Source: a virus
Lineage: Duplodnaviria; Caudoviricetes
Reading direction: 5' to 3' (one strand)
Virus record (IMG/VR): IMGVR_UViG_3300028048_000040
Coordinates: 64,001-128,000 of that record
Length of the DNA: 64,000 bases
Shown: piece after piece, positions 15,593 to 41,458 of the stretch
How the letters are laid out: every line of letters starts with the position of its first letter
How positions within the stretch are numbered: position 1 is the first letter of the stretch
Notes under the pieces: generated by a model
Seen by the model: the letters and a program-made list of their open reading frames with translations, nothing else
The model's database searches: none
What the model was told of the DNA's origin: nothing
Program-made: the position numbers and the translations under genes

Positions 15593-15691
15593 ATTGACTC
15601 CTCCTTATCTATCATTATAATAGTATATGTCTAAAAATCATATTAAAGAAAAAAATACAAGGATGTGGAGTCCTTGTATTTTTTGAATGCT

Positions 15692-16138
15692 TTATTTACA
15701 TTCATCATTGTCCGGATCATCCCACTGTACCACGATATACGGAAGTGGATGAGTGGGATTTGCCTTAAACATTGAAACTTTGAAACCAGCAGATGCTTTT
15801 AATTCGTGGACAGCATCTCCAAGTACATCTTTTGTGCACGTGATATCAGGATTGATTTCATTTTCTTTTTCTTTAGAAGATGCAGCAACTTGAGCCATTG
15901 CCTTCATAATGTCATCAGCTGTTGCTTTTTCGTCAGATGCTTCTATTTGCTTGTATAAAATAGTAGCATTGAACTGAGCTTTGTTCATAGCATCTTCGAT
16001 CTTAGAAACAATGACATTGATAACGTCTTGCACATTTTTGTCATGTTTCTCTTGTTTTCTTTTAACAATTTCTGCGTAAACTTTTGCAGAAACCTCAGAT
16101 GCTTTTGCGGCGTTGATAGAAATGTTGAACTTTGCCAT
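15692..16138 (-). CDS. Hypothetical early protein with the conserved structured leader
   Basis: ORF with RBS, promoter and terminator. Confidence 0.8.
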   Translation of the reverse strand: MAKFNISINAAKASEVSAKVYAEIVKRKQEKHDKNVQDVINVIVSKIEDAMNKAQFNATILYKQIEASDEKATADDIMKAMAQVAASSKEKENEINPDITCTKDVLGDAVHELKASAGFKVSMFKANPTHPLPYIVVQWDDPDNDECK

Positions 16139-16206
16139 GATAAAAGACTCCTTTCTATATTTACACGTCTACACCTAATCTCCGATGTAGATCTTGTCTT
16201 TATCAC
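16136..16206 (-). promoter_or_regulatory. Conserved start-codon-sequestering 5' UTR, copy 1
   Basis: GTGATAAAGAC...GTCTTTTATCATG with inner hairpin TCTACA-TCGGAGATTAGG-TGTAGA. Confidence 0.7.
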
Positions 16207-16289
16207 GGCTATAATATACATTTGAAATATACTAGTTTTACAAAAAAGATAGTAAGGGAGAAATCCCTTACTATCCTATTCAATTTACA

Positions 16290-16994
16290 TTAATCTTCTT
16301 TTTCTAACTTTGTGATATTATAATACATTGTTTTTAAAGAAACTGTATGGAGGTCAACAAACTTAGGAGGAGTATCGTCATAAAGATCATATGGGTCATC
16401 ACGCCTAATATAGCGCATATCAGCTTTGAGTTTATCTGTAAGACTTTTCTTGATTTCCATCATCTTATCATATGCTTCAGAGCATTTAATGTTGATAAAA
16501 TCTTCAGGAATAGAAGAGAAAATCCTGGATAGTGTAATTGAAACATCACAATCTTCAAAGCAACCAATTACACCATTCTCATCAATAGGTGTGCTCATTT
16601 TGACCCATATAGAATCAGTATAAGATGTTTCAATAGTCAAATCCTTTTTGCCTAATAATGTAGCTGCAACTAATGATATTCGTGATTTGGAACTTTTGTG
16701 ATAGTTATCAGATGCACTGCCAAGTATTACATTAAATATACTCGATACAAAATCTTCTACAGCAACATATGCAAAGAATGGAAATTTAACAGTCATATTG
16801 TCTTCCCTGAGTTTACCAGTTTTAATGTCAAGGTTATATGCAGAGTTTACTATAAAATTAGTCTCGAAGACATCTGGATCATGTGCATATGATCCTGTAT
16901 AGACTGAAATGAAATCAGGATCGTTTTTGTCATCCTCTTCTGGTATATCCAGTCCACTGGGAATCCAACTTTTGATGATTTCTTCTTTCGTCAT
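16290..16994 (-). CDS. Hypothetical protein
   Basis: ORF with RBS downstream of telA. Confidence 0.75.
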   Translation of the reverse strand: MTKEEIIKSWIPSGLDIPEEDDKNDPDFISVYTGSYAHDPDVFETNFIVNSAYNLDIKTGKLREDNMTVKFPFFAYVAVEDFVSSIFNVILGSASDNYHKSSKSRISLVAATLLGKKDLTIETSYTDSIWVKMSTPIDENGVIGCFEDCDVSITLSRIFSSIPEDFINIKCSEAYDKMMEIKKSLTDKLKADMRYIRRDDPYDLYDDTPPKFVDLHTVSLKTMYYNITKLEKED

Positions 16995-17006
16995 GATATT
17001 TCTCCT

Positions 17007-18173
17007 TTACATAGTTCCTCTGCCTTGAGCTGTAGTGGAATACAGTGTGTCCTTGAGTCTAGACTCAATCTGAACAAGTTCTTGTTCAACTTGCTGTCTC
17101 TTAGCTCTACCTTCCTGCTGGATACGAAGAGTTTCTTCTATAGTAGTAATAAGAGATTCATTTGCTTCTTTAAGACTCTCTATATCTACTATACCTCTTT
17201 CAGACTCTCTAGCAGTTTCAATGCTATTAGTCTTCAGCATCTCAGCATTCTTCTTTATCAACTGATTGGTCATATCAGTAACAGACCGATTCAGTTTTAA
17301 TACTTGAGCCTGTCTATTCAGACCAAGAGATACACATACACTCATCTTCCAAAGAGGAAGTGTATTATTGATAGTGGTCTGTACTCTATCAATCAGCATT
17401 TTATCATTATTCTGAATAAGTCTAATCTGAGGAGCAGTCTGAATAGAAATGGTTTTAGATATCTTCAAATCATGAAGTTTCTTTTCAAATCTATCTACCA
17501 TCTGTTCAAAATCTGCTACAGCCTGATTAGCCATCATATCGCCAGACTCAAGAGCTTGCTGTTTAAGAGATGGCAATGCAACTTCTCTCAATTCTACAAG
17601 CTTCTCTTCACCAGCCTGTATATACAGTTGAAGGTTCTTAAAGTATTCATAATTCTTCTTGTACAGGGTATCATAAATCTTTATATCCTTCATCATCATA
17701 TGCTGAGCCTTATCTAATTCAGATTCGATTCTAGTAACCTGAGTAGATAAAGAATCATATCCTCTAATCATCTTCTTAGAATTATCTACCAATTTACCTA
17801 AGAATGGAATCTTAGAAAGGAAAGTATTATTAGACTTATCAAAGTCTTGTACTTTTCCTACTAAGTCATTCAGCAACTCACCAACATGACCAGAATCTTT
17901 GGTCTTTACATTTTGAAGTATAGAGTCTGAGAAAGTAGTAATGTTTCTCTGTGCTACATTACCAAACGAAATTACTGAATTAGTATCAGTGATATTAATA
18001 GAGTCTTTGATTCTATCAATCTCTTTTCTATCCTCAGGAGAAATCTCTGCTAACTCAAAATCGTTTTTCACAGGCATAGTTTCCTGCACATTCTGAATAG
18101 CTGTTTCAGAATTAGGAACTGCTTTATTAGCAGCTCCAGACATAATATCCTCTAATTTGTACTCTGTTGCCAT
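17007..18173 (-). CDS. telA: Toxic anion resistance protein TelA
   Basis: FGNVAQ, LYIQAGEEKL, QTAPQIRLIQNND, TLPLWK, RGIVDIESLK. Confidence 0.93.
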   Translation of the reverse strand: MATEYKLEDIMSGAANKAVPNSETAIQNVQETMPVKNDFELAEISPEDRKEIDRIKDSINITDTNSVISFGNVAQRNITTFSDSILQNVKTKDSGHVGELLNDLVGKVQDFDKSNNTFLSKIPFLGKLVDNSKKMIRGYDSLSTQVTRIESELDKAQHMMMKDIKIYDTLYKKNYEYFKNLQLYIQAGEEKLVELREVALPSLKQQALESGDMMANQAVADFEQMVDRFEKKLHDLKISKTISIQTAPQIRLIQNNDKMLIDRVQTTINNTLPLWKMSVCVSLGLNRQAQVLKLNRSVTDMTNQLIKKNAEMLKTNSIETARESERGIVDIESLKEANESLITTIEETLRIQQEGRAKRQQVEQELVQIESRLKDTLYSTTAQGRGTM

Positions 18174-18200
18174 AATACATGCATCTCCTTATTATATTTA

Positions 18201-19415
18201 TTATTCTATAAAAGTAGAAATACCAGAATAATCAACCTTCTTACCAGATGATATTCTTCTTTTTCTTTTATTGGAATCATACCAAGAGATAATTTTAGCC
18301 CAATCTGCAGAATCAAAGAAAAGATCTAATCCTTCATTGGCTAAGAATTCTTTATCTCCTTTTATCAATACTTTAAATCCTTCTCCAAGAGATATTAAGT
18401 ATGGGATAAAAGTCCAGAATAGAATCATTCGTATTAAGAATGTCTCACTCTGTACCATATGTTTATGGAAAGAGAATATTCCTGTAGGAAGCATAGCAAG
18501 AGCAACATATTTCATCCTAGTCTCATGTATTTTTTCTACATCTTTATTCTTAGCTATATGATCATACCAAAATTTAGCATAATCTGATTCTATTTTACGA
18601 ATCTCAGTTATAGAAAATCTACCATCAATAGCTCTTGATAAGGCCAAACCATACTCAATCAATTCTTCTTCCACCTCTGGGTCTACATACATCCCATACA
18701 TAGGATGCATAGGATCTTTACATACTTCTTGTGTATTACTACTATAATCACTAGATTCTTTTTTCTTAGTGGTTGTTTCTTCCATTTCACTAAGATCTAT
18801 ACTATCAAGTCTATCTTCAATATCATCATAGACTTCTTGAACTTTTTCCCTCCTAGCATTTGCTTTAGTAGTATCAGTTTCATGTAGATTAGATACCTCA
18901 ACGCCTTGCTGTTTCATATCTTCTACTAATACAGCTAATTCTGCATTGATATCAATATGATCAGTATCTGTAATCTTTTTATATTCATTATTGAATATCT
19001 CTACAAAGCTTATCAGTACATTCCGTATATTGGATTTTGTATTGATAAAATCTTCATCTACTACTACTGATGCTGCTTCATCCATAGAAGAATATTTTCG
19101 ACAAAGCATAACTGCTTTGTCTTGATAGTGTTCAATAAACTTTCTAGCAGTAAAAATCTTTTCTTGATTCTTATTAATATGATTGATGATAGTAAAAGAA
19201 ATCTCTGCTAGCTTAAATATAGCTGTAGCTAGTTCTTTATCTTCTTTAGTTCTATCTATATTAGAACTAGCCAACCTAAGGGTATTCTGGTCTTTAACAG
19301 CTTTTTGTAATAATTCTTTCTTGAATACTTCAGAATCATTCTCATCCATTTTGCTTCCTCCTTTGTTAAAATTGACTTCTTTTCCATTAATAAATACTCT
19401 ACATGAAAGCATCAC
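18201..19415 (-). CDS. XpaC-like protein fused to a C-terminal TM2-like membrane domain
   Basis: ARKFIEHYQDKAV...DINAELAVL resembles XpaC; directly upstream of telA; GIFSFHK...LFWTFIPYLISLGEG resembles TM2. Confidence 0.65.
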   Translation of the reverse strand: MMLSCRVFINGKEVNFNKGGSKMDENDSEVFKKELLQKAVKDQNTLRLASSNIDRTKEDKELATAIFKLAEISFTIINHINKNQEKIFTARKFIEHYQDKAVMLCRKYSSMDEAASVVVDEDFINTKSNIRNVLISFVEIFNNEYKKITDTDHIDINAELAVLVEDMKQQGVEVSNLHETDTTKANARREKVQEVYDDIEDRLDSIDLSEMEETTTKKKESSDYSSNTQEVCKDPMHPMYGMYVDPEVEEELIEYGLALSRAIDGRFSITEIRKIESDYAKFWYDHIAKNKDVEKIHETRMKYVALAMLPTGIFSFHKHMVQSETFLIRMILFWTFIPYLISLGEGFKVLIKGDKEFLANEGLDLFFDSADWAKIISWYDSNKRKRRISSGKKVDYSGISTFIE

Positions 19416-19566
19416 CCAATTCGTCCTTTCTTAAAATTCAGAAAGAGAGTGAGAGAGGAAATACTCCTCTCTCATAAACAAACCATGGAGATGCACACAA
19501 TTATATATAAGTATACACACTATTTGCTTTTAACTCTCTATCCATAATAATAGTATATACTTATTT

Positions 19567-20406
19567 TCATTTTTGAGTTGGTTGATCAAAAAACATACTA
19601 ATACCTAATTCGAGTTCTAATAAAGACAATACCATTACAGATAACATCTTGATCAAATGAAATGTCATATTTGTAAAACTATTACTATCATCTTCCTTAA
19701 TAGCAGAATCTAATAGATAGTTAGGATTGCTTATATTTCCATCTCCATCTATCTTTATATACTTAAATTTTAGTAAATCTGCTGTCTTAGCATGAAATTC
19801 ATCTTCACAGTCATATATTGTTTGTGTAAGTTCACAAGTTCCATCTAATAAGTTTACATTAGCTTTAGTAATCGTATACTTATTCTCAAATGAGTCAAAT
19901 GCCTCTGTTGATCTACATATAACATTGAACCAATCCATTACTACATTCTCATCTGTAGTATCTAAATCTAGATTAGATTGTATAGTGAGTTCATTTTCTT
20001 TAAATACTCTTTTTATAATCTCTTCGGTATCTTTCTCTGCTGTAGCAGCATAAGTTAATAAAAACTCTATAAAGCTTAATAAGACAGGTATTATTCTATT
20101 AGGATACTTTTCTACTGTCTTTAAATATCTACTCATAGAATTCATAGCAAACTTTTGTATTCTAGGATACTTCCAGTTCACAAAATACCATAACTTAATT
20201 TTATTGATAGTTTTTTCAAACCAAGTCTTTTGAGTACTCATTGCCATACCAAGATTAGATAAAGAGTTTAGAAACTTCATGTACATGGTAAACAACCTCA
20301 TTAATTGCCCTTCATCATTTTCTTTGTTCCAAAACATGATTAAACTCACCTTCCAAATATTTGATGTGATAATACGAATATAGTAAGGACATAAAAGTTC
20401 TCTCAC
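19567..20406 (-). CDS. Hypothetical protein (true start probably later)
   Basis: ORF track. Confidence 0.65.
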   Translation of the reverse strand: MRELLCPYYIRIITSNIWKVSLIMFWNKENDEGQLMRLFTMYMKFLNSLSNLGMAMSTQKTWFEKTINKIKLWYFVNWKYPRIQKFAMNSMSRYLKTVEKYPNRIIPVLLSFIEFLLTYAATAEKDTEEIIKRVFKENELTIQSNLDLDTTDENVVMDWFNVICRSTEAFDSFENKYTITKANVNLLDGTCELTQTIYDCEDEFHAKTADLLKFKYIKIDGDGNISNPNYLLDSAIKEDDSNSFTNMTFHLIKMLSVMVLSLLELELGISMFFDQPTQK

Positions 20407-21031
20407 AAGTATCTATATACTCCTTATGTTGTGGATTCATAAAGTCTAATGTATATTCATTATATGTAGGAGATGATTTAGACAGCTGTAAAATTACAGC
20501 TCCTCTTAAATTAGTATTATGAACTTCTCTAAGAACTTTATTATATGCTGCTAACTGAAGGAAGTATTTATAAGTTATATGATTAGAAGTCTTAAAGTCT
20601 ATTAACCATGGTTCTCCATTGATAGATAATAGTAGATCATAAGTACCACCATAATACTGACAGATTAAAGGAATCTCTTGTCCTAATATCTGTACAGTCT
20701 GATTAGATATAAGATTATTCCACCAGTTAATAAATGCCATCATAGAAAAATAAGGAGCATCTTGTAAAATTCTATTCTCTTTTAGGAATATCTCTATTCC
20801 ATGATGAGTCTTACTACCATAATTACATGCTTCATTTAACACATCTCTATATTTCTGGTGTTTGAATCCTAAGTTATTAGCCCATATAGTTATAGCATCT
20901 GAATGAATCATATCAGATATAATAGATGTTACTCTAGGTACTTTATTTCCATTGAACGAATAGTCTGAAACTGATTCAGATAGTTTAAACTCTAAATCAT
21001 CTATGTCTTTGAACGAGAATTCATATTGCAT
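20315..21031 (-). CDS. PD-(D/E)XK nuclease (Cas4/RecB-like)
   Basis: PRVTSII, GSKTH, YGGTYD, LIDFKTS, QLAAY. Confidence 0.88.
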   Translation of the reverse strand: MQYEFSFKDIDDLEFKLSESVSDYSFNGNKVPRVTSIISDMIHSDAITIWANNLGFKHQKYRDVLNEACNYGSKTHHGIEIFLKENRILQDAPYFSMMAFINWWNNLISNQTVQILGQEIPLICQYYGGTYDLLLSINGEPWLIDFKTSNHITYKYFLQLAAYNKVLREVHNTNLRGAVILQLSKSSPTYNEYTLDFMNPQHKEYIDTCERTFMSLLYSYYHIKYLEGEFNHVLEQRK

Positions 21032-21121
21032 GTTGTTGCCTCCTATATATTTACTTATCTTGAAGTCTTCATTACAATAAAAAACAAGAGGGACTAACCG
21101 GACTAACCCCTCTTGTTAATC

Positions 21122-22015
21122 TTATTTTTTATCCTTTACACGATTTTCAATATACGATTCAATCGCAGTAAATAGACTATTATCTTTAAGCAATACAGAT
21201 TTGGCTAAACCAAGATGATTGATATTATAAATATAAGCATTAACTTCATCAATAGTTATATTGAATTTTTTAGCAATCTCCTTTTTCTTTTCTTCTACCT
21301 TCATTTTTAATAATTTGGTGTTTTTATAATATTCATTTTTTTCATATATTTGTTTAAAGAATTCTTCTTTTGTTTCTGCTTTACTATAGATATTATGTAT
21401 TACACGATTACCTTTAGGAATATAGACATAAACCCTATGTATATCTCTAAAGTTTTTATATGGAGATATATCAAATTTAAACGTATCCCTAATATCACGT
21501 ACTTTACGCTTTGAACCTTCTCTAATTTCATTAATATATTTGGTCCTAACGAAATGATCTATTTCTTTTAGCTCTTCATCAGTAATTTTTGATGTATCTC
21601 GTTTTATACCTTTTGATTCATATAAGTGCCTTCGTATAGCTGCAGTAGTAGCATCATAGTCTAAATTTAATTCTTCGCATAACGCATGTAATTTAGCTGG
21701 GTATTTCTTAGATCTGTTTAAGTTTTGACATTCTAATTCTATTTTTTCAAAATCTTCATCTACTAAAGACGTAAAATTTTTATGCAATTTAGAATAAACA
21801 AAATGTCTTAATGTAGATCGTTCCATATTATATTTACTACTAATAACACTAATCCTTTCTTTAATATTTTTCATAATCGAAGCTTGTTTTAGATATTCTC
21901 TTGTTTTTTCTAAATCTTTATCACACTTTCTATAATATGCAAATTCAATATTATAAATACTAAGATTTGGAAACTCTTTCATTAAAATATTTCGAATTCC
22001 TGGTTTACTACTCAT
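21122..22015 (-). CDS. Basic helical-repeat protein, paralogue of 22808-23728
   Basis: ORF; shared modules with the neighbouring gene. Confidence 0.7.
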   Translation of the reverse strand: MSSKPGIRNILMKEFPNLSIYNIEFAYYRKCDKDLEKTREYLKQASIMKNIKERISVISSKYNMERSTLRHFVYSKLHKNFTSLVDEDFEKIELECQNLNRSKKYPAKLHALCEELNLDYDATTAAIRRHLYESKGIKRDTSKITDEELKEIDHFVRTKYINEIREGSKRKVRDIRDTFKFDISPYKNFRDIHRVYVYIPKGNRVIHNIYSKAETKEEFFKQIYEKNEYYKNTKLLKMKVEEKKKEIAKKFNITIDEVNAYIYNINHLGLAKSVLLKDNSLFTAIESYIENRVKDKK

Positions 22016-22120
22016 CTCTTATCAACTCCTCATATAAATAGTATACAACTAAAAAATAATTTGCTCTAAAAATACAAAAAACATAGGGATTGCTCCCTAT
22101 GTTTTGAATAGATTGATTGA

Positions 22121-22345
22121 TTAGATAGTTTCTAACAATGGTTTATCTGGATGAAGAGAATTATACTCTTTAATACAAGCAAACTTTACTTCTGAAAGTT
22201 TGCTTTCATCAAAATGAATAGAACTAACCACTCCAGCTTTAGCAAGACGATAACGGATCTGACTGTAAGTCAATCCACACAAATTTCCCATGTAATTGAA
22301 AAACTTGTGATACTTGGTTTCCATTTCTCTTTCTTCTGTTGTCAT
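22121..22345 (-). CDS. Small hypothetical early protein
   Basis: ORF with RBS, promoter and terminator. Confidence 0.7.
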   Translation of the reverse strand: MTTEEREMETKYHKFFNYMGNLCGLTYSQIRYRLAKAGVVSSIHFDESKLSEVKFACIKEYNSLHPDKPLLETI

Positions 22346-22458
22346 TTTTAAATACCTCCTAAATCTGAAAACATAATTTTCTTTTCATCTCTATAATATA
22401 TATCTATTTCTAAGTTTGAATAACAAAAAACAAGAGGGGATTCCCTCTTGTTTTATTT

Positions 22459-22758
22459 TTAATGAGCATCTTTAGATTCAAATGACTGTTTAGCTCTATC
22501 AATGATAACATCAGTACAGTGCTTTGTATCGAACATACCATGTTCTTTAAGCTCTCTGTAGCAATCATCATATGATAGATTATATTGATCTACCATATCA
22601 TCAACAAAGTTTTTTACATGAGCTTTGCACTGACGTTCTCTAAGAACATTCAATACCTTCTTTTCATCATACTCACAGGATTCGTATATCCTATCAACAT
22701 CCCTCTTTCTATACCCAAGTTCTGTTTCAATAGAGTAAATCTCATCTTTAATAGCCAT
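22459..22758 (-). CDS. Small hypothetical early protein
   Basis: ORF with RBS, promoter and terminator. Confidence 0.7.
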   Translation of the reverse strand: MAIKDEIYSIETELGYRKRDVDRIYESCEYDEKKVLNVLRERQCKAHVKNFVDDMVDQYNLSYDDCYRELKEHGMFDTKHCTDVIIDRAKQSFESKDAH

Positions 22759-22807
22759 TTTAACTATTCCTCCTTTCTACCTATCAATAAAATAATATAT
22801 AATTATT

Positions 22808-23728
22808 TTAAATTTTATTTATCACCCATTTTCTTTCTGTATTTAATTTTAGTTCTAACTCATTAAGCTTTTCAGTATCAAGAAAGTCTAGCTTACTCAT
22901 ATTTAATCTACTCCAAGCAAAATTAAATACAGTATTTTGTGATAAATTAAATTTTTTACATATAGCATCTATATTAGAATTTATCTGATCAGCATTTATT
23001 TTTGTAGTATTTAGCTTTTGTCTATGTTTAAGGTATTTTTCAATATTTTTATCAAATTCTTCTCTTGTTTTAGAATGTCTATATAATTCTATTGTTCTTG
23101 GAACATTAAATCCTTTGGCATTAGCAAATGCTGTTACTGAGCTATGACCGTCAAGATCAAACTTCAATGGTATCATTCTATAACTTATCTTCTTTGGTTT
23201 TTTATATTTATCTCTAGCATAAATATATATTTTATCTATTTCTTCTTCAGTTAAATCTTCAAGCTTTTTATTTTTATCTTTAATAACTGAACGTTTTATA
23301 GAATACATAGTTTCTTTGTTCATTTCTATACCTAATTCATTTATACGATTATGTAATTCTTTGATTCTCAAACGTGATTTATAAAATTCTTCAAATGAAT
23401 ATCGTAAATAGAAAGGTTTGGTATTATTTTTATTTATATATCTATCATATAACATTCTAACATATTCTCTATCAGTTTCATTATATTTTTTCATAATATA
23501 ATCTATTGAATCATGATTAGCTTTTGTCTTTTTTCTATATTCTAATATACGATTCATTCTAAATTCAAATTCTTTTTCATCATAATTACTTTTTATCAAC
23601 ATTGCTGTTACATTGTTTCTTATTAAAGAAAATTTCACTACAACATCTTTTACAGTATTACAATCTTTAAACATTTCTCCTTTAAATCCTTCAATATAGG
23701 TATCATATTTACTTTTACCTCTACTCAT
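22808..23728 (-). CDS. Basic helical-repeat protein, paralogue of 21122-22015
   Basis: Start moved to MSRGKSK behind AGGAG. Confidence 0.7.
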   Translation of the reverse strand: MSRGKSKYDTYIEGFKGEMFKDCNTVKDVVVKFSLIRNNVTAMLIKSNYDEKEFEFRMNRILEYRKKTKANHDSIDYIMKKYNETDREYVRMLYDRYINKNNTKPFYLRYSFEEFYKSRLRIKELHNRINELGIEMNKETMYSIKRSVIKDKNKKLEDLTEEEIDKIYIYARDKYKKPKKISYRMIPLKFDLDGHSSVTAFANAKGFNVPRTIELYRHSKTREEFDKNIEKYLKHRQKLNTTKINADQINSNIDAICKKFNLSQNTVFNFAWSRLNMSKLDFLDTEKLNELELKLNTERKWVINKI

Positions 23729-23822
23729 TTTCTTTTCTCCTATTTCTTGACTACTAGAAAAATTATACATTATAAAATTCGAAAAGATAAGTATTAGAGC
23801 CAAAGCTCTAATACCTTAGTTT

Positions 23823-24176
23823 TTATTCAATTACCATAAAACTAGATAAGAACTTATCTCTTTCCAAATTTACTATTACCATATTATCTAATGTAACTTG
23901 AATTCTAGATGAACGTGGATCGTTCCACCAATACCACTGTTGATTAGGATTCAATCTTAATTCCATTACTGGAGTAATAATAGTAGAATTAGTCATAGGT
24001 TGACACAATCCAGGATTGCTCATACTATGAGTTACTGTTACAGTAAATCCATCTTTAACTACTTTCGTTACATTAGTAGGTGGAGGAATAAGACCTAAAT
24101 CAAAATTACTCCTACTCATACTACTAATTGGTTGAACTCCAATCATAATAATCACTCCTTTGATTAATCTTCCCAA
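23823..24176 (-). CDS. Hypothetical protein
   Basis: ORF track. Confidence 0.6.
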   Translation of the reverse strand: MGRLIKGVIIMIGVQPISSMSRSNFDLGLIPPPTNVTKVVKDGFTVTVTHSMSNPGLCQPMTNSTIITPVMELRLNPNQQWYWWNDPRSSRIQVTLDNMVIVNLERDKFLSSFMVIE

Positions 24177-24778
24177 TATACAGCAATTAGTGAATCTTTC
24201 TTAGCCATATAATGATTTATATCTTCGATAACACAATCTTTCCATTCTGAATTACATTTATCCCAATAATACACAGATAACCATTTTCTAAAATACTCTA
24301 TTGCTTCATCTAAGTTATTAGTAACCATTTCTTTTCTTGGGCGATGCCAATAACTATTAATGAACTCTTCGTAAAATGGAAACTTCTTAGTCCATAACAC
24401 ATTAAGTGGAATTATTTTAGATTCATTGTATTTAGGTTTTACTATGGAGCTATATGTTTTTCCAATATAATCTTTCTCAATTTTGTAATACGGGCAAATA
24501 TAATTAGAATATGCTCTCTTTCTCAGATAATATGTATTGATAAAGGAATCATGTCCATAATAAAATTTACGTTTATCCAATGTTTTACGAGAACCTATTT
24601 CCCAAATAGCTGGAAGGGATAAATTATTATCATATTGAGTCCCATCCTTTTTATAGAACTTGTAATCTTTATCAGTATACTTTATCTTATTTCCAACTAT
24701 ATTCCCAATCAATTCATCTCTTGCAAATTCTACTTCTAGTGGTTCATATATTCTTAAGGTTACAGTACACCGCTCCAT
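24164..24778 (-). CDS. Hypothetical protein
   Basis: ORF with GAGG RBS. Confidence 0.7.
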   Translation of the reverse strand: MERCTVTLRIYEPLEVEFARDELIGNIVGNKIKYTDKDYKFYKKDGTQYDNNLSLPAIWEIGSRKTLDKRKFYYGHDSFINTYYLRKRAYSNYICPYYKIEKDYIGKTYSSIVKPKYNESKIIPLNVLWTKKFPFYEEFINSYWHRPRKEMVTNNLDEAIEYFRKWLSVYYWDKCNSEWKDCVIEDINHYMAKKDSLIAVYWED

Positions 24779-24794
24779 AGTAAATTACCTCTCT

Positions 24795-25088
24795 TTAAAA
24801 TCCTAATTGATCTTTAATATACTTAAAATCTCCCTCCAATTCTTTAGGTAATAGTCCTCTTTTGAATAAGATATTAGATAGATTATTGATTAATCTACCA
24901 GCATCTCTCCTTTTAAAGAAGTTCCTTTGATCTGTATCAGCAGCTATTCCAATATCATATTTGAAATCATTAATAGCAGATGTTAATCTTGCCATTTCAT
25001 TTGCATCTGCAGTATATACTTCTTTCACCTCTTCTGTACCTGGAATAGTTACTTCTTTTAATACTTTCTTTACTTTAGATCTAGGCAT
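24795..25088 (-). CDS. Hypothetical protein
   Basis: ORF with RBS and an early-type promoter at about 25123. Confidence 0.72.
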   Translation of the reverse strand: MPRSKVKKVLKEVTIPGTEEVKEVYTADANEMARLTSAINDFKYDIGIAADTDQRNFFKRRDAGRLINNLSNILFKRGLLPKELEGDFKYIKDQLGF

Positions 25089-25187
25089 TTACATTCTCCT
25101 CTCTTAATCTACCTACAATAAAATAGTATATATCTATAAAAAATATTAAAAAAGAAACAGGATGTAGAGTCCTGTTTCTTTTTGTAT

Positions 25188-25571
25188 TTAAGCATTGAGG
25201 AAAGCATATTTGTATTCGAAATCGAATATATGTTTAACATGCTTGCAGAATTCCTCCTGCTGGTATTTAGAGAAAGACTTTGCTGATACAGTCATTACTG
25301 TATTTTTATCACCTCTCTTTGCTATAATATAGAAATAAGTATTGCCTTCTTCAGTATCATCAACCATGTTAATTTCTTCTAACTCGAATTCACCTCCTTC
25401 TTTTTTGAATAAGTTTAGATCTTTCTTGAGATCTTCCATGAATTCTCCACAGGAGCTATAGACCATTTTCTTGCCACTATCAGTGGTGACAAGACAAGTT
25501 CCACTGTAAATAAACACACCCAGATATTCTTCCAGTTCTGCCATTATTTCTTTGGAAATCTTCTTGCTCAT
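25188..25571 (-). CDS. Hypothetical early protein with the conserved structured leader
   Basis: ORF with RBS, promoter and terminator. Confidence 0.8.
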   Translation of the reverse strand: MSKKISKEIMAELEEYLGVFIYSGTCLVTTDSGKKMVYSSCGEFMEDLKKDLNLFKKEGGEFELEEINMVDDTEEGNTYFYIIAKRGDKNTVMTVSAKSFSKYQQEEFCKHVKHIFDFEYKYAFLNA

Positions 25572-25635
25572 GATAAAGTACCTCCTTATTAAATATATGA
25601 ACTAGCTCATCTTGACTAGTTCTTCACTTTATCAC
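25569..25635 (-). promoter_or_regulatory. Conserved start-codon-sequestering 5' UTR, copy 2
   Basis: GTGATAAAGTG...TACTTTATCATG with inner hairpin GAACTAG-TCAAGATGAG-CTAGTTC. Confidence 0.7.
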
Positions 25636-25661
25636 TGCTATAGTATACAAGTAAAAAAATT

Positions 25662-25777
25662 AAAAATGACATGATATGGAAGAGAGGAGATCTGGTTCTG
25701 ACTTCAGATCCCATGTGTGTATGTTAAATCAAATTCCCCAACTCAATTTTACTGCTTTTCTTCCACATCACATCACT
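25662..25777 (-). ncRNA. Candidate early structured small RNA, about 115 nt
   Basis: Early-type promoter at about 25781-25790; 17-bp closing stem 25775-25759/25683-25667 with 3 G-U pairs; U-tract follows. Confidence 0.6.
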
Positions 25778-25803
25778 ATTATAGTATATAACTATAATTT
25801 GGT

Positions 25804-26067
25804 TTACTTTGCAGAATCAAGATACGTTTTTAACTTATTTTCAAATTCTGCTTCAGTTTCACAGGTTTCTCTTATGTACTTAATCTCTTTCCCAATAGTA
25901 TTCAATTCATTCTCTATATTAACTATATGAGGATATGCAAATTTTGCACTTTCAAGAATAGAACCTGTAGATCTAATCATTTTTTCATTAGCTTCAGAAA
26001 GACTAGTAATAATCTTTACTAAGTCCTCTTTATCTAACTTCATTAAAGCTTCTTTAGAAATTTTCAT
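25804..26067 (-). CDS. Small coiled-coil hypothetical protein
   Basis: ORF with GGAGG RBS and promoter. Confidence 0.72.
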   Translation of the reverse strand: MKISKEALMKLDKEDLVKIITSLSEANEKMIRSTGSILESAKFAYPHIVNIENELNTIGKEIKYIRETCETEAEFENKLKTYLDSAK

Positions 26068-26202
26068 TTGAATTCACCTCCTCTCATCAACCACCCATAA
26101 AAATAGTATATGCCTAAAAATAAGTTTACTAGATAGATTATATACTAACGACATTTACATAAATTGAGATCTTATTATTTCATAAGGGAGGAATATATAC
26201 AG

Positions 26203-27183
26203 ATGAGCAACATCAAAACTTATTCTGATACTTATCTATATCAGAAATATCCTATTTACACAAAGAAACTTACAGATGCTATTATGAGAGATCCTGTAAT
26301 TGAAAAGAATACAGATACATTCTCAGATGTAGAGTATGTAGTTAAGAAAGCAAGAATCTCTGATTCTTTAGTAAACATTCTTAAATCTAGAAATGTTATT
26401 CTATTAGCATGTGAAGATCCTCTTCCTAGAGCATTTAAAGTATTTGCTGCTAGAGATATGAAATCTAAAGATAGAGCACTTAGAATCTTCATAGATTGTA
26501 CTGGTGTAATCACTAAGTCTAAAACTTCTATGGATTATACTGTGAATGAATCTAAACTTCTATCATATCTATTATCTGCTGGTGTTACTATGGCTTATCA
26601 TAAAGATGCTAGTATGATTACTAGAAGAAGTGCATTAGTTACTGGTTCTACAGAAGCATTTGCTAAATGCTTTACTTTCATTATAGATTATCTAACTAAA
26701 GTATCTATTCAGGAATCTAGTAAAGTAAAAGTAATGTATCTATCTTCTATGTATTTCCTAATTGGTCAGTTAGGATTAGATGAGTCTAGAGCACAACCTA
26801 TTGCTAAGAAGATTGCTGGTATTTCTGAAAGAGAAGCTACTATGCTAGATATGCTTCTAGAGAAATATAGTGTACCTAAAGGTGGAAATACTAAAGATCA
26901 TTCTCCATATGAGAATATCAAAGTGTTTGTATCTGCTCTAAGAGAAGTAATGCATTTTAACGCTAAAACTATTAGTGTAGATATTGTAGTAGAAAGATGG
27001 ATGCACTCCTATGGTGTAGGAACAGTATTTGCATTAGAATATTTCCCAGCATTCTCTGCTATGATGACAGATGCTTATATTGGTGGATACTTAAACTCTC
27101 AGAAAACTATAGAGAAAATTTGTGGATCTACTATGGTTCAGTATTCTAAGGATGCAATCGACTTTGTAAGTAGCTTAGCTTAA
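26203..27183 (+). CDS. Hypothetical protein, first gene of the late structural operon
   Basis: Start moved to MSNIKTY behind GGGAGG; late-type motif at 26151-26162. Confidence 0.75.
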   Translation: MSNIKTYSDTYLYQKYPIYTKKLTDAIMRDPVIEKNTDTFSDVEYVVKKARISDSLVNILKSRNVILLACEDPLPRAFKVFAARDMKSKDRALRIFIDCTGVITKSKTSMDYTVNESKLLSYLLSAGVTMAYHKDASMITRRSALVTGSTEAFAKCFTFIIDYLTKVSIQESSKVKVMYLSSMYFLIGQLGLDESRAQPIAKKIAGISEREATMLDMLLEKYSVPKGGNTKDHSPYENIKVFVSALREVMHFNAKTISVDIVVERWMHSYGVGTVFALEYFPAFSAMMTDAYIGGYLNSQKTIEKICGSTMVQYSKDAIDFVSSLA

Positions 27184-27201
27184 TGAGAAAGTAGTGATTA
27201 G

Positions 27202-30200
27202 ATGAGCAGGTTCTTATTAAGACTAAATTTTGATTCAAATGGCTGTACTGATACTAGGATTGCTAATGTTGGTGAAGTAAACTTCGAAACAGAATCTGCT
27301 ATAAAAGAATATCATCAAAGATCTGCATACTTTCCACCATATTCTCATGCAGGATTAAGATTCTATGATTCTAATAGTGAGATAAAAGATCTGTTTGGAG
27401 ATATAGACAATCCTACTACAATATATTTTAAATATAAGATTAAGAGAAAATATATGAGAAGGGATATACTAACACCAATCATTTCCTATAGAGATGGAAA
27501 TGCTGATGATACTAATATCCCATTCTTATATTTTAAAGATAGAAAATGGTTAGTAATAGAGATAGATAGTAATGGAGATAAACTTTATACTAGAGATATA
27601 AGCTATACTTTTGATGATAGATGGCATTGTGTTACTATTACTAGACTAAGAAAGAAAGTATCTATATTTATAGACGGTATAAAGAATACAGAAAAATTAG
27701 TAGACTATCCATTTACATTTGGAGATAATCTATACTTAGGATTATTTCATCCTAATGCTAGTACTACAGCAACATTTAACAATGGTTCTTTAGATGATTT
27801 CTGTATAACAGATAGTGTATTTTATTTTGAGAACTTTGTTCCTCCTACACTATATTGGAATGGTTTAGATTCTAGAGATAACTATTTCCTAAATGATTAT
27901 TTCAATATAGATAATCTGGATCCTGATTTAGCATTTCAAATGGAAAGAAATAGAACCCATACTATTCAATCTATTAATGCTAATCAGATAGGAAATATAC
28001 CATATAGAATGAAGATAGAATGGTATACTGATGATAAGTATTTTATCAATGACGAAGAGCTAGTAAGAGAAATCAATAAGAAAAGAGACTATACTATTCT
28101 TAGAATTTTTATGGTAGAAAATATACATATGTTTGTAGACGGTACAGAAAGATTTGGTGAATGGGAACCATTAACTGAAGTAGCTGCTAAACATACTATG
28201 TATCCATTTGCTCTATTTGTAAATAAGAACTTTATTCCTCTTAGTAGAATTCGTATAATCAAATCTGACTATTGGTATACTTTTATAATTAGAGGATTAG
28301 ATCCCAGTGTAGAAGTTACTGATGTTAAGATGTTATTTATTCCCTTTAGTTGTATATATGAAGAGTATAGAGGAGAAAGACCTGATAAACAGGTTATGTA
28401 TTCATTCAAAGAGAATGGTAAATTTACTACAGATGGAGCAGACTTCTACTATTATTTTGATAATGAAAAATACCCCAACTTAAAAGCTGGAGGTATAAAA
28501 GAAGAATATATCAATCCTGGTTTATTAAGTAATGATCCAGAATCTGATTTGACTATAGATGATACTCAATTAATGCATTATTCTTGGAGATATGGAAACT
28601 TTGAAGTAAAAAGAAATGATGGTACTTCTACATATGTATATTTCATGGCTTGGGATAATGGTTGGATTAAACCAGGAGATGTAGTACTTCTGTATGTAGG
28701 TAATACTCTTATTCCACAAGAGAAATATAGAATTGTAGGATATGATCTAATAGAGATATTTGATTATTATACCATGGGTCTAGATGGTAGATTGATTACA
28801 ATGTGTATAATAACAGATTGTAGAACAGATGGTTGGTTATTTGAAGACTTTACTGATACTAAAGTAGTAGAAGTAGAAGCTACAGAGAATGAACAGTCTG
28901 TATTCAAGATACCAGATGTTGATGATGGAGACACAATTCCATATGACCAATTCTTACTCTTCAAAGGATCTGTATGTTTAGAGAATGAAAAGAGATATAA
29001 GATAAATTATGACAAAGGAACAATAACTTTACTATCTCCTTCTGATTGGATGAGTATAGGAAGACATTTAACATTTGTATTTGTTAGATGCCATAAATCA
29101 GATGAATGGGGTCCAATGTGGATGAAACCTATCTTCTTTGAAAAGAAGATAACTCAAGCTGATCCTACTAATCTGATTACTACTATAGATATACCAAACA
29201 TGTATAATATCAAGTATACCATGAACAATCTCATGGTATATAATCATAATACATTGGTAGTTCCTCAGAGATATAGAATAGAGAACAATCAGCTTATCTT
29301 CGTTCATCCTGGAGATGGTTTACAAGGAAATCCATCATTAATCTTTGTAGTTCTTAAAATGGCATCTCAGATAGAGAAAGATAATCCTAGAAATAAACTA
29401 TTACTAGATCTATATAGAAAAGGAAGAAGATTCCCATTCTACAATCTAGGAATAGATAAGAAGATAAAGCTAACTTTAGAAAATATAACTGCATTTGATC
29501 AAAATGGTGAATATATTGATGATCTTATGGGTTGTATTTATAGTATGAATGTAATCAAACAGCTATACACTTCTGATCCTAATAGAGTTGTAAGATATAT
29601 AACTATTGTATATCATGATTGGTCTGAAGAGAACTATGCTAATATAACCCTTCCAGATAACGATAACTTCATCAAACAATATCTATGTATGTTTACAGAG
29701 TTTGAAGAGTTAGATAAACATTTTGATGAATTCATTTCTGAATATGAGACTAAGTATAGACTTAGAGGAGAATCAGGAATAAGAAAGATTCATTTCCATT
29801 ACGGAGTTAATCTAGCAAAAGAACTAGACTATCAAATCTATTATAATCAATCTAGATTTGATTCTGTATATGAAAAGAAAAGAACTGTAACTAGAAAGAC
29901 TTTTAATACAGATACTCTAAATGATGCATTAAAAGAAGATACAGTTACTGGAAAATTCAATCTTAGTATTCCTCAAAATACTAAATGGTTTATAAATAAT
30001 ATCTATGATACTTATTCTCTCTTCTTTAAGAATGGAGAACTTATAGACCATGAAGAATGTGTATCTTATCTAGGAAACGAGTGTAAACTAAGTTTACCTT
30101 CTAAATTAGGTTCAGATGAATGGATGGAATCTATTGATTGTCATAAACAGTTAAATAAGCTAGAAGAATTACCTATAGCTATTAAGGGATTCAATCCTGA

Positions 30201-30591: not shown

Positions 30592-30670
30592 ACACATAAA
30601 TGGGATATGGGAATAATCCCATATCCCAAATTTTAGTAAAAGAAACAGAGAAAGGAGAGAAATAATATAT

Positions 30671-32302: not shown

Positions 32303-32314
32303 GGAGGTGAGATA

Positions 32315-35098: not shown

Positions 35099-35116
35099 AG
35101 GAGGTGAATCTTATAA

Positions 35117-37051: not shown

Positions 37052-37068
37052 CAGAGGGGGTGTTTTAA

Positions 37069-37461
37069 ATGGCTAAACCTGTAGTAGACCCAGATACTGG
37101 TGTCATAAATTTCCCTAATATTGTTTTCAACAATACAAATTGTTTCATGAGAAATTTATCTAAGTCTCTTTCTGATATGCAAGAAATAGGTTCTAAAAAT
37201 ATACCATTTAAAATGATGGTAATTGGTACCAACTCTGCTATCAATTTAAATATCAAACCAACTACAGATGATCCAAATTATTCTAATATAGAATTAAAGA
37301 ATGCAGCAGAAGATCCAACTTATACAATGAGTGGATATGAAAGAAAAGAAGATACTTATCTAAATTCTACTGTGTATCTTATGCTTCAAAATGGTTGGAC
37401 TGAAAATAGAATCTATGATTCTCAGAATAATATTATGTGTTCTCTCTTGTTAGGTGGTTGA
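37069..37461 (+). CDS. Hypothetical structural-operon protein
   Basis: ORF with RBS. Confidence 0.7.
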   Translation: MAKPVVDPDTGVINFPNIVFNNTNCFMRNLSKSLSDMQEIGSKNIPFKMMVIGTNSAINLNIKPTTDDPNYSNIELKNAAEDPTYTMSGYERKEDTYLNSTVYLMLQNGWTENRIYDSQNNIMCSLLLGG

Positions 37462-37467
37462 TAGTAT

Positions 37468-38406: not shown

Positions 38407-38470
38407 CTAGATAAGAGTACGTGTATCACGTACTCTTATTTTATTGATATAGAAAGAAGAGTGAGAGAGC

Positions 38471-40090
38471 ATGAATTATAATTATGAAGGAAAGGTAACA
38501 TGGCATGATTTATCTCGTCCTATTCAAGAACTATTAAAAGGATATCAAGATAAGATAAACAATGTTGCTAAATCTGTAGAAGATCTTAAAGCTTATATGG
38601 AAGATAAGCTTAATAATGAGATTAATAAGCTTAAAGATGATCAAGCTAATCTAGAAGGTTTATTGGAACAAGAAAAACAAGAACGTATGACTAAAGACCA
38701 AGAATTAGAAGATTTAATATCTCAATTTGCTAGTTCTAATCTAGGTCTAGAAGGTGCTAAAGGTCAAGTAGTAAGAACCAATGCTACTGGTAAACCATTA
38801 TATGCAGATGATCATTTCTTTGTATTAAGGGCAACAGCTTCTGATGAAGGTGTAGGAGTTTTAAAAGGAATAACTCCTATTACATTAGAAGATGTATTTA
38901 ATAATTGGGAACGTAATGCGTATATGGCAGATAAAGGAGCAGGTTCTGGTGGTACTAATGATACTGCTAGTGCTAAAAGTAAATGGAGCTATGATGCTGG
39001 AGTAAAAGGTATAAGAAATAATGGTAACTGGAATGCTGTTGGCTCATTTGGTTCTGTTTTAAAATACGATAATTTTTGGATTAAGATGTCTATGAATTCT
39101 ATGACTGGCAATGATGATGACGTTATTGGCTTCTATCCAGCATATGTATCAGCAGAAGATTCTCCCGATGGTCAAATTCATAATATTGCTGCTATTAGAA
39201 TTGGTAATATTGCCCATCAATGGAATTATTATCCAGGAAACTTTGTATTAGTATATGACTTTGGTTTGAGTACTGAAATTGTATTAGCATATGTAGATAG
39301 AACTATTATGCCAGATACTATGTGGAAATCTAATTATTATACTTCTCTTTATGTATATCGTAAAGGTGGTACTATTAAAGCATGGTCTAATAATCCTCAA
39401 ACTAATAGAACTCAAACGTATTTAGAAGATCCTGGAGAATATATAGAATGGTCCCTTCCTAAAACTAATCCTGGTTGGAGTACAGCTTCCTATGACATTA
39501 TGAAACAAATGCTTGATGGTATTTGTAAAGTAGGTTTTATGACTTGCTCTAATGATTGTCGTTTTTATTTAGATGATCAAAAACACTTATTTGAAGATCC
39601 TACAATATATGATATCAATAAAGGTGTCATATATGAATATGATATGGAAAATGGTGTTTATAAAGCAGCTGCCGATATGGGAGAAGAAGAAATACCATGG
39701 AGATCATTGCTATATAACCCATTAACTGAAGAACTATTCTGGTATAAATATCCTGGAGACTATACTAAAGTAAAAATAGGTGGTGGTAGTTCAAGCTCTG
39801 GATCATCTAATGGTGGAGTAGGATTCCCTGATTGGAATAATCAAACAACTATGACACATAATGTTGAAAATACTATTGATGAAAATGGTTGGATACTTTG
39901 GATAAATAGATTGACTACTAATACTAATGGAAATTTATATATTAATGGTACGCAGGTTACATTTTTAGCAAATCAAGCAACAAATATGTATACTTCTGAA
40001 TCAACAGTATTTGTTCCAGTAAAAGTTGGAGATGTGGTAAGATCAGTAGGACAATCTCCAACAACATTTATATTTATGCCATTTATATAA
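38471..40090 (+). CDS. Tail fibre / receptor-binding protein, K(I/V)TW..L.P family
   Basis: Shared N-terminal motif plus coiled coil; central domain shared with 52859-54898. Confidence 0.65.
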   Translation: MNYNYEGKVTWHDLSRPIQELLKGYQDKINNVAKSVEDLKAYMEDKLNNEINKLKDDQANLEGLLEQEKQERMTKDQELEDLISQFASSNLGLEGAKGQVVRTNATGKPLYADDHFFVLRATASDEGVGVLKGITPITLEDVFNNWERNAYMADKGAGSGGTNDTASAKSKWSYDAGVKGIRNNGNWNAVGSFGSVLKYDNFWIKMSMNSMTGNDDDVIGFYPAYVSAEDSPDGQIHNIAAIRIGNIAHQWNYYPGNFVLVYDFGLSTEIVLAYVDRTIMPDTMWKSNYYTSLYVYRKGGTIKAWSNNPQTNRTQTYLEDPGEYIEWSLPKTNPGWSTASYDIMKQMLDGICKVGFMTCSNDCRFYLDDQKHLFEDPTIYDINKGVIYEYDMENGVYKAAADMGEEEIPWRSLLYNPLTEELFWYKYPGDYTKVKIGGGSSSSGSSNGGVGFPDWNNQTTMTHNVENTIDENGWILWINRLTTNTNGNLYINGTQVTFLANQATNMYTSESTVFVPVKVGDVVRSVGQSPTTFIFMPFI

Positions 40091-40193
40091 AATAAACTCT
40101 AGACCTTTTTGGTCTAGAGTTTATTTTCTTAGTACAGCTAGCACATCTATATAAAGGTATAGGTCTCTTTCTATTATTTTTTTTAAAAGGGAT

Positions 40194-40910
40194 GTGTTTT
40201 ATATGAGTAATACGAATACCTCCGGTGTTGATTTCATCAGCAAAGAAATTGAGAATCTGAAAAAGAAATTAGATGGAACACAATTAAAGCTTTACAATTC
40301 TATGATTGATAATTTAGTCACTTGTTGTAATGCTAAAGCAGGCACTGGAAAAACTACCGTAGCTACCATGGCAGCATTTGATTTGCTGCAAAAAGGAATC
40401 GTTACAAAAATTTATTACGTTCGTTTCCCAGATCAACTTATGCAGTCTCTTGGCGCGCTCCCTGGCGACATAGACGAAAAAGAAGACTATTATTTCCAAC
40501 CATTCTATCAAGCATGTGAAGAAATTGGTTTGGATAGATATCATTTAGAACGAGATTATGTACCTCAAAATACTGTCAATCTTGAAACTATAATTACTAT
40601 GCGTGGTATTAATATTAAGAATGCTGCTGTTATTGTAGATGAAACACAGAATGCTTCTTTTAAAGATCTAAAGCTATTACTTACTAGATTACATGATGAT
40701 TGCCATGTTGCTTTGATTGGTCATACTGCTCAGATTGACAATCATAACTGTGTAAAAGAGAAAGCATTCATTCATTATATTGAGCACTTCTGCAATAACA
40801 AACAATGGGCACAAAGAGTAGATCTAAAAAAGAATTATAGAGGCAAGATCAGTGCATTTGCAGATGCATTGTATTTAGATGATAATGGAAAACCATTCGT
40901 TGTAGAATAA
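40194..40910 (+). CDS. phoH: PhoH-family ATPase
   Basis: AGTGKT, LGALPGDIDEK, MRG, VDETQN, LLTRL. Confidence 0.93.
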   Translation: MFYMSNTNTSGVDFISKEIENLKKKLDGTQLKLYNSMIDNLVTCCNAKAGTGKTTVATMAAFDLLQKGIVTKIYYVRFPDQLMQSLGALPGDIDEKEDYYFQPFYQACEEIGLDRYHLERDYVPQNTVNLETIITMRGINIKNAAVIVDETQNASFKDLKLLLTRLHDDCHVALIGHTAQIDNHNCVKEKAFIHYIEHFCNNKQWAQRVDLKKNYRGKISAFADALYLDDNGKPFVVE

Positions 40911-40955
40911 AAAATGAGGAGTCCTGTAATGGGACTCCTCAATTGTGCTGGCATA

Positions 40956-41270
40956 TTATTTGCCAGTCTTTACATCAGTGATGATGTTGTTTACGATATT
41001 CCAGCTTATAACCTTATGAGAGAGAATGCGACTACGTATCTCCTCATATTCAGATCTGCTGATATCTACTTCAAAAGTGTCAGAAAGAGAAATCACCTTA
41101 TTTCCGAATTTTCCTTTTTTGGGAAGGGCAGGAGTGAATTTGAATTCGATATTCAATCCTTTCTGGTCATAGTTATAACGACCAAGCTTACATGCATACG
41201 CATGTTTTTGGTCTCTTTCAGAATTGAAGGTAACCTGATCAGAAGTGTGGTCATAAGTAATAATAAACAT
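40956..41270 (-). CDS. Hypothetical early protein with the conserved structured leader
   Basis: ORF with AGGAGG RBS, promoter and terminator. Confidence 0.78.
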   Translation of the reverse strand: MFIITYDHTSDQVTFNSERDQKHAYACKLGRYNYDQKGLNIEFKFTPALPKKGKFGNKVISLSDTFEVDISRSEYEEIRSRILSHKVISWNIVNNIITDVKTGK

Positions 41271-41334
41271 GATAAAGTCCTCCTTTATTATTATTATGCT
41301 ATACCTAATCTCTGATATAGCTTCACTTTATCAC
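41268..41334 (-). promoter_or_regulatory. Conserved start-codon-sequestering 5' UTR, copy 3
   Basis: GTGATAAAGT...ACTTTATCATG with inner hairpin GCTATA-TCAGAGATTAGG-TATAGC. Confidence 0.7.
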
Positions 41335-41458
41335 TGCTATAATATACAAATATAAATATTTAAATTTTCAAATAGTTATATACTATATACATGAGTTAAC
41401 GTTAGGAAACATACAATTCTATTCTAAACTCAATTTATTTAAAGGAGGACTATTAATA

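Follow-up and report, generated by a model that had tools for sequence, protein, structure and literature searches.

A 64,000-nucleotide stretch of phage DNA (the window; bases 64001–128000 of one 342,328-bp virus contig, IMG/VR record IMGVR_UViG_3300028048_000040, hereafter genome G000; 31.6% G+C) carries three genes, B, C and D, whose leaders fold into a loop closed by pairing between the predicted 5′ end of the mRNA and the bases just before the start codon. In the family to which these leaders belong, arm and stem types that are distinct yet complementary are numerous enough to argue, at the level of sequence, for selection on RNA pairing. We hold with moderate confidence that the closed leader would protect the 5′ end of its mRNA in a form that ribosomes can open, and that it rides on a shufflable expression cassette. 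An original prediction, made from the window alone, had seen one layout in the three leaders and proposed a regulon in which a folded 5′ untranslated region (UTR) buries the start codon until a protein, ligand or small RNA (sRNA) recognises its hairpin loop. The layout was present as described, on the minus strand of the window in all three cases: TGTATAYTATAGC(A/C), then GTGATAAAG, a hairpin, an A/U-rich run, AAGGAG(G) and CTTT(T)ATCATG. Each leader folded alone adopted the same shape (z-scores −2.7 to −4.5), consisting of an outer helix (P1), a 2–4 nt linker, an inner hairpin (P2) of 8–9 bp, and then 18–20 unpaired bases with the Shine-Dalgarno (SD) sequence.

Covariation, fold and distribution of the leaders

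We measured covariation on 28 sequences (27 distinct) in a model-based alignment. Standard pairs occupied 91% of cells versus 71% in shuffles, and the covariation score, for which cells are sequences and not events, leaders are exchangeable as whole units and the alignment was fitted to the model, was 0.47, compared with 0.13 ± 0.015 in shuffles (0 of 500 as high) and at most 0.11 in slid controls with partners shifted by 1–3 columns. The predicted covariation of P1 and of the hairpin stems was therefore upheld. The variable columns of P1 contained no unpaired cell (A-U 20 and G-C 7; A-U 25, G-C 1 and U-A 1; G-C 14, U-A 6, C-G 3, A-U 2 and G-U 2); the P1 alignment is secure because the arm ends are invariant. 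Similarly, double changes were found in six of the seven modelled P2 pairs. Five types of P1 arm, perfectly complementary across 45–55 nt, were distinguished: GAUAAAG/CUUUAUC, GAUGAAU/AUUCAUC, GAUAAAC/GUUUAUC, GAUAAGA/UCUUAUC and GAUGAUA/UAUCAUC.

The same data bear on a DNA-level explanation, in which the inverted repeat GTGATAAAG...CTTTATCAC would be the two-site target of a DNA-binding regulator of the early promoter. Its 5′ half-site is highly conserved and overlaps the promoter and +1 region, as such a target might. However, the half-sites change jointly to unrelated sequences (GATGAAT, GATAAAC, GATAAGA, GATGATA), they are spaced 32–39 bp apart in short members versus 56–65 bp in members with P2, and the intervening hairpin covaries. 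This combination is consistent with RNA pairing but not with a protein site that is fixed, and we regard a DNA operator as very improbable.

In leader B, the 5′ arm of P1 (GU-GAUAAAGAC, 16196–16206; its first two bases are probably promoter positions −2 and −1) pairs with the 3′ arm UCUUUUAUC, which is followed by the AUG at 16138–16136 (arm and AUG together, 16136–16147); P2 lies at 16168–16191 with a class I loop (GGAGAUUA), and the SD, AAAGGAG at 16148–16154, is predicted to be unpaired. Leader C consists of the 5′ arm GU-GAUAAAGUG (25625–25635), a P2 with a class III loop (CAAGAUGA, 25599–25622), a predicted unpaired SD (GGAGG, 25581–25585) and the 3′ arm UACUUUAUC with the AUG at 25571–25569 (25569–25580). 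The corresponding parts of leader D are GU-GAUAAAGU (41325–41334), a P2 with a class I loop (AGAGAUUA, 41298–41321), GGAGG (41279–41283) and ACUUUAUC with the AUG at 41270–41268 (41268–41278).

Across the family, P1 measured 7–11 bp and P2 7–9 bp, separated by 2–4 nt on one side and 18–20 nt on the other. Such dimensions could recall an RNase III processing site, like those before T7 or SP82 early genes, or an RNA thermometer, since P1 and P2 stacked would total approximately 16–20 bp around an asymmetric internal loop and the helices are AU-rich. Against processing, neither helix alone nears two helical turns, the 3′ side of the supposed internal loop is 18–20 nt long, and short members have P1 only (7–10 bp); against a thermometer, temperature provides little of a signal in the rumen or gut. 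We therefore give this pair of explanations very little weight.

A regular-expression scan followed by a covariance model identified eight members in G000 (9158, 24607, 25124, 29890, 80206, 89635 and 105334 on the minus strand, 162649 on the plus strand), the common leader being approximately 65 bases long. At E ≤ 0.01 (the E-values of the covariance models built here are rough), leaders B, C and D were the only members within the window; the model found five further members in the rest of G000. Scanning of relatives, which the original prediction had proposed, added 12 members from G001, an IMG/VR relative of 332,775 bp whose topoisomerase is 96% identical, and a metagenome scan returned contigs that match G001 exactly and, from a third population, eight further leaders, among which seven sequences are distinct. 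The family thus totals 27 distinct sequences from three related phage populations.

No clear member was found in the more distant relative G003 (topoisomerase 57% identical), where the 5′ end of one promoter-linked leader has a local pairing partner instead. A promoter-plus-arm pattern returned 80 loci from IMG/VR, with real members on the G001 contig only, and GTDB genomes yielded only pattern-driven chance matches of at most 29 bits, true members scoring 27.8–82 bits under model R1 and at least 36.5 bits under model R2. Megablast against phage records gave no match. Two window matches to GTGATAAAG or to promoter-like sequence, at 21916 and 25304, were rejected, as they lie within coding sequence and have no 3′ arm. 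Novelty with respect to Rfam, which the original prediction had left to be checked, held: a search of seven loci containing seven of the eight G000 members at full length (member S is cut by its locus end) gave nothing at the leader positions at E ≤ 1, and at the gathering thresholds of Rfam 15 the single match in the whole window was a tRNA. By these searches, the closed-leader family matches no described RNA family and is found only in this rumen phage clade. The tRNA is a phage gene at 1363–1434 on the minus strand (RF00005, 63 bits).

Promoter class and predicted RNA start

All members carry the promoter octamer in the form (T/C)ATAYTAT-N4-(G/A)(T/C)-G. TATAYTAT occurs 219 times in G000, and 108 of these sites are intergenic, that is, outside open reading frames (ORFs) of at least 90 residues, a fraction comprising 12% of the sequence. 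At 101 intergenic sites not belonging to the family, positions six, seven and eight after the octamer were T in 78%, G in 82% and A in 69%, respectively, and an upstream (T/C)A(G/A)nnA was conserved over approximately 100 intergenic sites. The leaders are consequently attached to approximately 8 of approximately 100 promoters of one phage-specific class, TATAYTAT-N4-(R)T-G. Mapped early promoters of the virion RNA polymerase of phage AR9 have the consensus AAATATATATTAT-(6N)-G(+1), and transcription in phiKZ and phiR1-37 also starts 6 nt past the conserved block (PMC5312081); the G000 class agrees with the AR9 early consensus TATATTAT-6N-G(+1). Furthermore, G000 has split multisubunit RNA polymerase genes (two beta-like and one beta′-like match above Pfam cut-offs) and gave no match to sigma70 region 2, and it is therefore assigned to the AR9/phiKZ-type jumbo phages. 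On this sequence evidence, the promoter is of the phage virion-RNA-polymerase type and not of the host type. We also tried a sigma70 reading, in which a −35-like TTGTAA lies 19 nt from TATATT, and rejected it: a consensus scan of 14000–27000 placed no minus-strand site at the B and C promoters, and sigma70-type consensus sites in that interval were fewer than in shuffles.

The octamers of leaders B, C and D are TATATTAT (the AR9-type early core, 16211–16218), TATACTAT (25640–25647) and TATATTAT (41339–41346), all on the minus strand, and the predicted +1 positions are the G residues at 16204, 25633 and 41332. By the AR9 rule, the GT of GTGAT would be the (R)T of the promoter before +1, and the RNA would therefore begin GAUAAAG. 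We consider the third base of GTGAT the probable RNA start and its first G a distinctly less likely one. The GU of GUGAUAAAG, which is able to pair with the AU of the AUG, probably lies upstream of +1. By analogy with AR9, the genes behind these leaders would be expressed early. Among contigs, the gene C sequence was present on three large DNA contigs only, and on no transcript-derived contig. An additional block, TTTGTAAAAYTRGTATAWTTCAAW, is common to members A, B and F, where it separates the octamer from the preceding terminator (16222–16277, minus strand, for leader B); it suggests a cassette sub-family or an upstream promoter element.

With the start assigned by the AR9 rule, P1 would run from +1 to the C before the AUG, so as to cover the SD–AUG spacer and abut the start codon without burying the AUG. 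The claim that the 5′ arm pairs across the AUG stood for the bases preceding it, whereas burial of the AUG itself would need transcription to begin with the first G of GTGAT, and the AUG was paired only when the RNA began 2 nt upstream of the predicted +1. Strong burial of the start codon was not borne out: with the AR9-rule start the helix would stop at −1, the SD stays largely unpaired, and the net gain from P1 (forced versus forbidden), in thermodynamic predictions for AU-rich RNA, averaged −3.5 kcal/mol (range +0.4 to −6.9), compared with −5.1 kcal/mol for a start two bases earlier. Including 36 nt of coding sequence, the pairing probability of G(+1) with C(−1) was 0.70–0.99 in five of the eight G000 members. 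Wherever P1 formed, the SD was largely unpaired (mean pairing probability 0.13–0.39) and the spacer paired. A marginal helix beside a strong, exposed SD is therefore no robust off-switch by itself.

We then compared the family with other leaders of the same promoter class, using 60 TATAYTAT-N5-TG promoters with a downstream SD and ATG. Leader lengths were bimodal, either 11–34 nt with the SD almost at +1, or 40–154 nt, often with a 5′ hairpin. Among the long non-family leaders, 15 of 27 had a helix of 5 bp or more opening at +1 to +4, compared with 7.1 ± 2.3 in dinucleotide shuffles (0 of 200 reached 15); this excess supports the +1 assignment and the importance of 5′-end pairing. Complementarity between the first 11 and last 14 nt was strong in the family (−8 to −10 kcal/mol) and was absent in the other leaders of G000. 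Similarly, in 26 AR9 early leaders, matched and mismatched pairs of 5′ ends and start regions scored alike (p = 0.31). In sequence terms, then, the distinguishing feature of the family is the pairing partner of the 5′ end, i.e. the start region. A same-class promoter in the window (TGTATATTAT-ATCTAT-G; 61252–61325, minus strand) drives a 62-residue ORF via a different leader, which forms one hairpin from AUAUCU..AGAUAU and another from CUAGAUAG..CUAUCUAG, both local, and does not pair with the start region.

Leader exchange, hairpin classes and downstream genes

Leader modules are re-assorted among genes. At one orthologous locus (G000:25124 and G001:91860), identity is approximately 93–94% over the terminator and promoter upstream and over the first 150 coding nt, and everything from GTGAT to ATCATG has been replaced except the SD block, with both the P1 arm type and the P2 class differing. 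A metagenomic orthologue of another gene has the hairpin of leader C where G001 has a class I hairpin, and the exact hairpin of leader D also precedes an unrelated gene. Genes A and B have in common their upstream sequence and first seven codons, and nothing else. Recombination of the leader units therefore appears, from these sequence comparisons, to resemble that of the PeSL cassettes in T4-type phages.

Genes B (148 aa, 15692–16138), C (127 aa, 25188–25571) and D (104 aa, 40956–41270), all on the minus strand and without a family match, are each a monocistronic unit with its own terminator. The near-identical terminator cores noted for two of the genes were confirmed for B (15684–15650) and C (25183–25149), which have ACA(A)GGA-CUC(C/U)ACA-UCC(U)UGU in common; the gene D terminator (40909–40940, minus strand) is unlike them in sequence. 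The three proteins had been described as dissimilar, and BLASTP found no similarity among them, nor among all eight G000 downstream proteins (62–180 aa). Pfam and PHROGs contained no family for the five downstream proteins scanned. Protein A, the product of another leader-driven gene (180 aa; locus L001 1784–2326, minus strand, equal to G000 29283–29825), carries HENRH, an HExxH motif. Its Atlas model shows a weak resemblance (TM 0.45–0.68) to small metallopeptidases of the zincin-like and SprT-like kinds, useful as a lead only, and protein A may be a minimal early protease.

One could suppose, then, that the leaders are mobile regulatory cassettes and nothing further, with recombination or gene conversion spreading the modules, as for PeSLs, and the fold having no function beyond promoter and ribosome-binding site (RBS). 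Replacement of a whole leader between near-identical flanks, the same hairpin before different genes and different hairpins before orthologous genes, the limited sequence common to genes A and B, and the monocistronic units with their own terminators would all be expected. This explanation leaves unaccounted for the five arm types with perfect complementarity over 45–55 nt, the many paired P2 stems, and the retention of P1 in short members that lack P2, and we judge it rather improbable. Recent cassette duplication, which had been named as a possible source of the similarity, does not suffice as a full explanation.

P2 itself is variable. Four members (three distinct) have no P2 and keep P1 around a loop of 21–27 nt, with about as many unpaired bases as in P2-bearing members. 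Where P2 is present, its loops fall into at least three classes: GAGAUU-type, CAUCAUGGUGGUG, and CAAGAAGA-type. The absence of P2 from four members, the number of loop classes and the differences between orthologues do not agree with the proposal that the loop is a common recognition site. Nor did a trans-acting partner emerge: no RNA complementary to the P2 loops stood out elsewhere in G000, and two phage sRNA candidates showed no specific complementarity to them (all |z| < 2). Even so, loop sequences such as GAGAUU are retained on different stems, which hints at some function. The 5′ half of loop CAUCAUGGUGGUG mimics the real start region AUCAUGG. Two roles for this part of the leader were considered and rejected: P2 loops as decoy SDs, since AGAGAUU loops are not SD-like, and an upstream ORF from the (C)AUG after P2, since many members have AUA, GUG, GUA or GUU in place of that codon, and neither its frame nor its length is conserved. 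In class II P2 hairpins (CUCAUCAUGGUGGUGAG; locus L002 1662–1684, plus strand, G001 and metagenome), the copy of the start context AUCAUGG is paired to GGUGGUGA, one mismatch from an extended SD, GGAGGUGA; such a hairpin could permit alternative pairing with the 5′ arm.

Proposed protection, possible control and comparison with known leaders

The model that we favour, with the moderate confidence stated above, is as follows. Virion RNA polymerase would start at the G six bases past TATAYTAT, as in AR9. The first 7–9 transcribed bases (GAUAAAG.. or a covarying variant) would pair with the 7–9 bases between SD and AUG, leaving the 5′-terminal nucleotide base-paired flush with the start codon, and the whole UTR would form a closed loop that displays the SD within approximately 20 unpaired A/U-rich bases, with P2 as an optional hairpin in the 5′ part of the loop. 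By analogy with other bacteria, a paired 5′ end would resist RppH-type pyrophosphohydrolase, the RNase J 5′ exonuclease and 5′-sensing endonucleases; BsRppH needs two or more unpaired 5′ nucleotides, and a 5′ stem-loop plus a strong RBS or ribosome binding stabilises mRNAs such as aprE and ompA (PMC3997798). A 30S subunit docked on the exposed, strong SD would open the weak P1, so that the mRNA would be protected both when idle and under translation, at the cost of a mild brake on initiation. Recombination would move the cassette of promoter, leader and terminator between small accessory genes.

The principal competitor, to which we assign a tentative second place as a possible but unlikely account, is a regulated translational operator: P1, perhaps clamped by an RNA-binding protein of phage or host, would silence a subset of early mRNAs until a protein, helicase or sRNA opens it. 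This assessment includes a variant in which a late repressor binds the junction of helix and AUG and shuts the genes off, as T4 RegA does. An operator would be in keeping with the invariable end of the helix exactly at the start codon and its coverage of the SD–AUG spacer in every member, with the conservation of GAU/AUC, and usually of the whole GAUAAAG/CUUUAUC, beyond the needs of pairing, with loop sequences kept on different stems, and with the presence of the leader at only a small share of the class promoters, as expected for a sub-regulon. However, with the SD exposed and P1 worth only approximately −3.5 kcal/mol, repression would need the clamp; P2 is optional, of at least three classes and swapped between orthologues; and no complementary RNA was found in G000 and no candidate protein was identified.

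Several observations count against protection as the full account. The assigned +1 is taken by analogy from AR9, and with a start two bases earlier the AU of the AUG would be paired, which would favour repression. The premise concerning decay enzymes comes likewise from other bacteria and not from the phage's own host. P1 dominates the predicted ensemble in only five of eight members (36 nt of coding sequence added), alternative pairings competing in the other three. Other long leaders use local hairpins, so a protective stem need not use the SD–AUG spacer, and the invariant flush junction with the AUG, which the protection model explains weakly, hints at a role in initiation. The P1 arms are conserved beyond what pairing demands, with A-U at the first variable position in 20 of 27 (GAUAAAG-type), and the P2 loops are conserved within classes, which lies outside what the model explains. 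A further reading, which we consider doubtful, has a phage or host factor recognise the junction of 5′-triphosphate-G and AUG to time or license the translation of a sub-regulon, with the P2 loop classes as address tags; if true, it would be a new kind of translational control, coupled to the 5′ end, in a phage equipped with a transcription apparatus of its own.

Known systems resemble the closed leader in part. The early units of AR9/PBS1 (Lavysh et al. 2017, PMC5312081) share the promoter core with G000, as well as the fixed 6-nt spacing between it and a conserved G, and they and G000 alike belong to jumbo phages with split multisubunit RNA polymerase genes, 5′ UTRs of tens of nucleotides and strong SDs; the authors of that study predicted an uncharacterised motif in the early 5′ UTRs of AR9. 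Unlike the family, the AR9 early leaders show no complementarity between 5′ end and start region, as given above. The leaders of E. coli ompA and papA and B. subtilis aprE (PMC3997798) place a helix at the 5′ nucleotide, as is predicted for the family, together with a strong, accessible RBS, and protection against 5′-end-dependent decay, by analogy, may be common to them and the family. Their stem is formed locally, as a hairpin far upstream of the RBS, whereas the 3′ strand of the family helix is the SD–AUG spacer itself; this helix encloses the SD together with the rest of the UTR and would have to open at every initiation.

The PeSL cassettes of the T4-type phages RB49 and phi1 (Arbiol et al. 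2010, PMC2839356) are likewise repeated modules of promoter, stem-loop and SD flanking small non-essential ORFans, and in both systems there is evidence of module-mediated shuffling of genes and leaders. PeSLs, however, have sigma70-type promoters and a stem-loop terminator located inside the promoter or upstream of it, whereas the family has a phage-polymerase promoter and covarying helices downstream of +1 in the transcribed 5′ UTR. In the MS2 maturation-gene leader, the hok mRNA fold-back and RBS-sequestering leaders, a 5′-proximal segment also pairs with the initiation region. Those elements stably occlude the SD, the AUG or both, whereas here the SD is free, the helix marginal and the AUG probably outside it; the SD is largely unpaired in the predicted resting structure and no conserved core for a ligand or factor is common to all members, in contrast to an RBS-sequestering switch.

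Post-transcriptional control is almost unexplored in jumbo phages with their own RNA polymerases, and the element described here ties the predicted first transcribed nucleotide to the ribosome-binding region. The model bears on how very early phage mRNAs, which pre-date any phage protein, could outlast host RNases and yet stay translatable, and the leader is a candidate for a compact cassette that would serve expression and stability in Bacillota-type hosts. Furthermore, the leader swaps between orthologues indicate that regulatory modules evolve faster than the genes they drive.

Two leaders beyond the family have related arrangements. Outside the window, at G000 25764–25818 (minus strand), the 5′ end of a short leader, GAUAUUU...GGAGAAUAUUAACAUG, pairs over 6–7 bp just past the SD, offset by 3 nt from the AUG; it scores 15.9 bits with model R2 and is possibly a degenerate or proto-member. 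In a more distant relative (IMGVR_UViG_3300021255_001218; locus L220, 1501–1565, plus strand), a leader with the same promoter type has a 5′ end, GAUAGUA, that pairs with a local partner, UAUUAUC, and AUUUAUCAUG is still kept at the start; this leader may represent an evolutionary step from local 5′ hairpins towards closed leaders, or the reverse.

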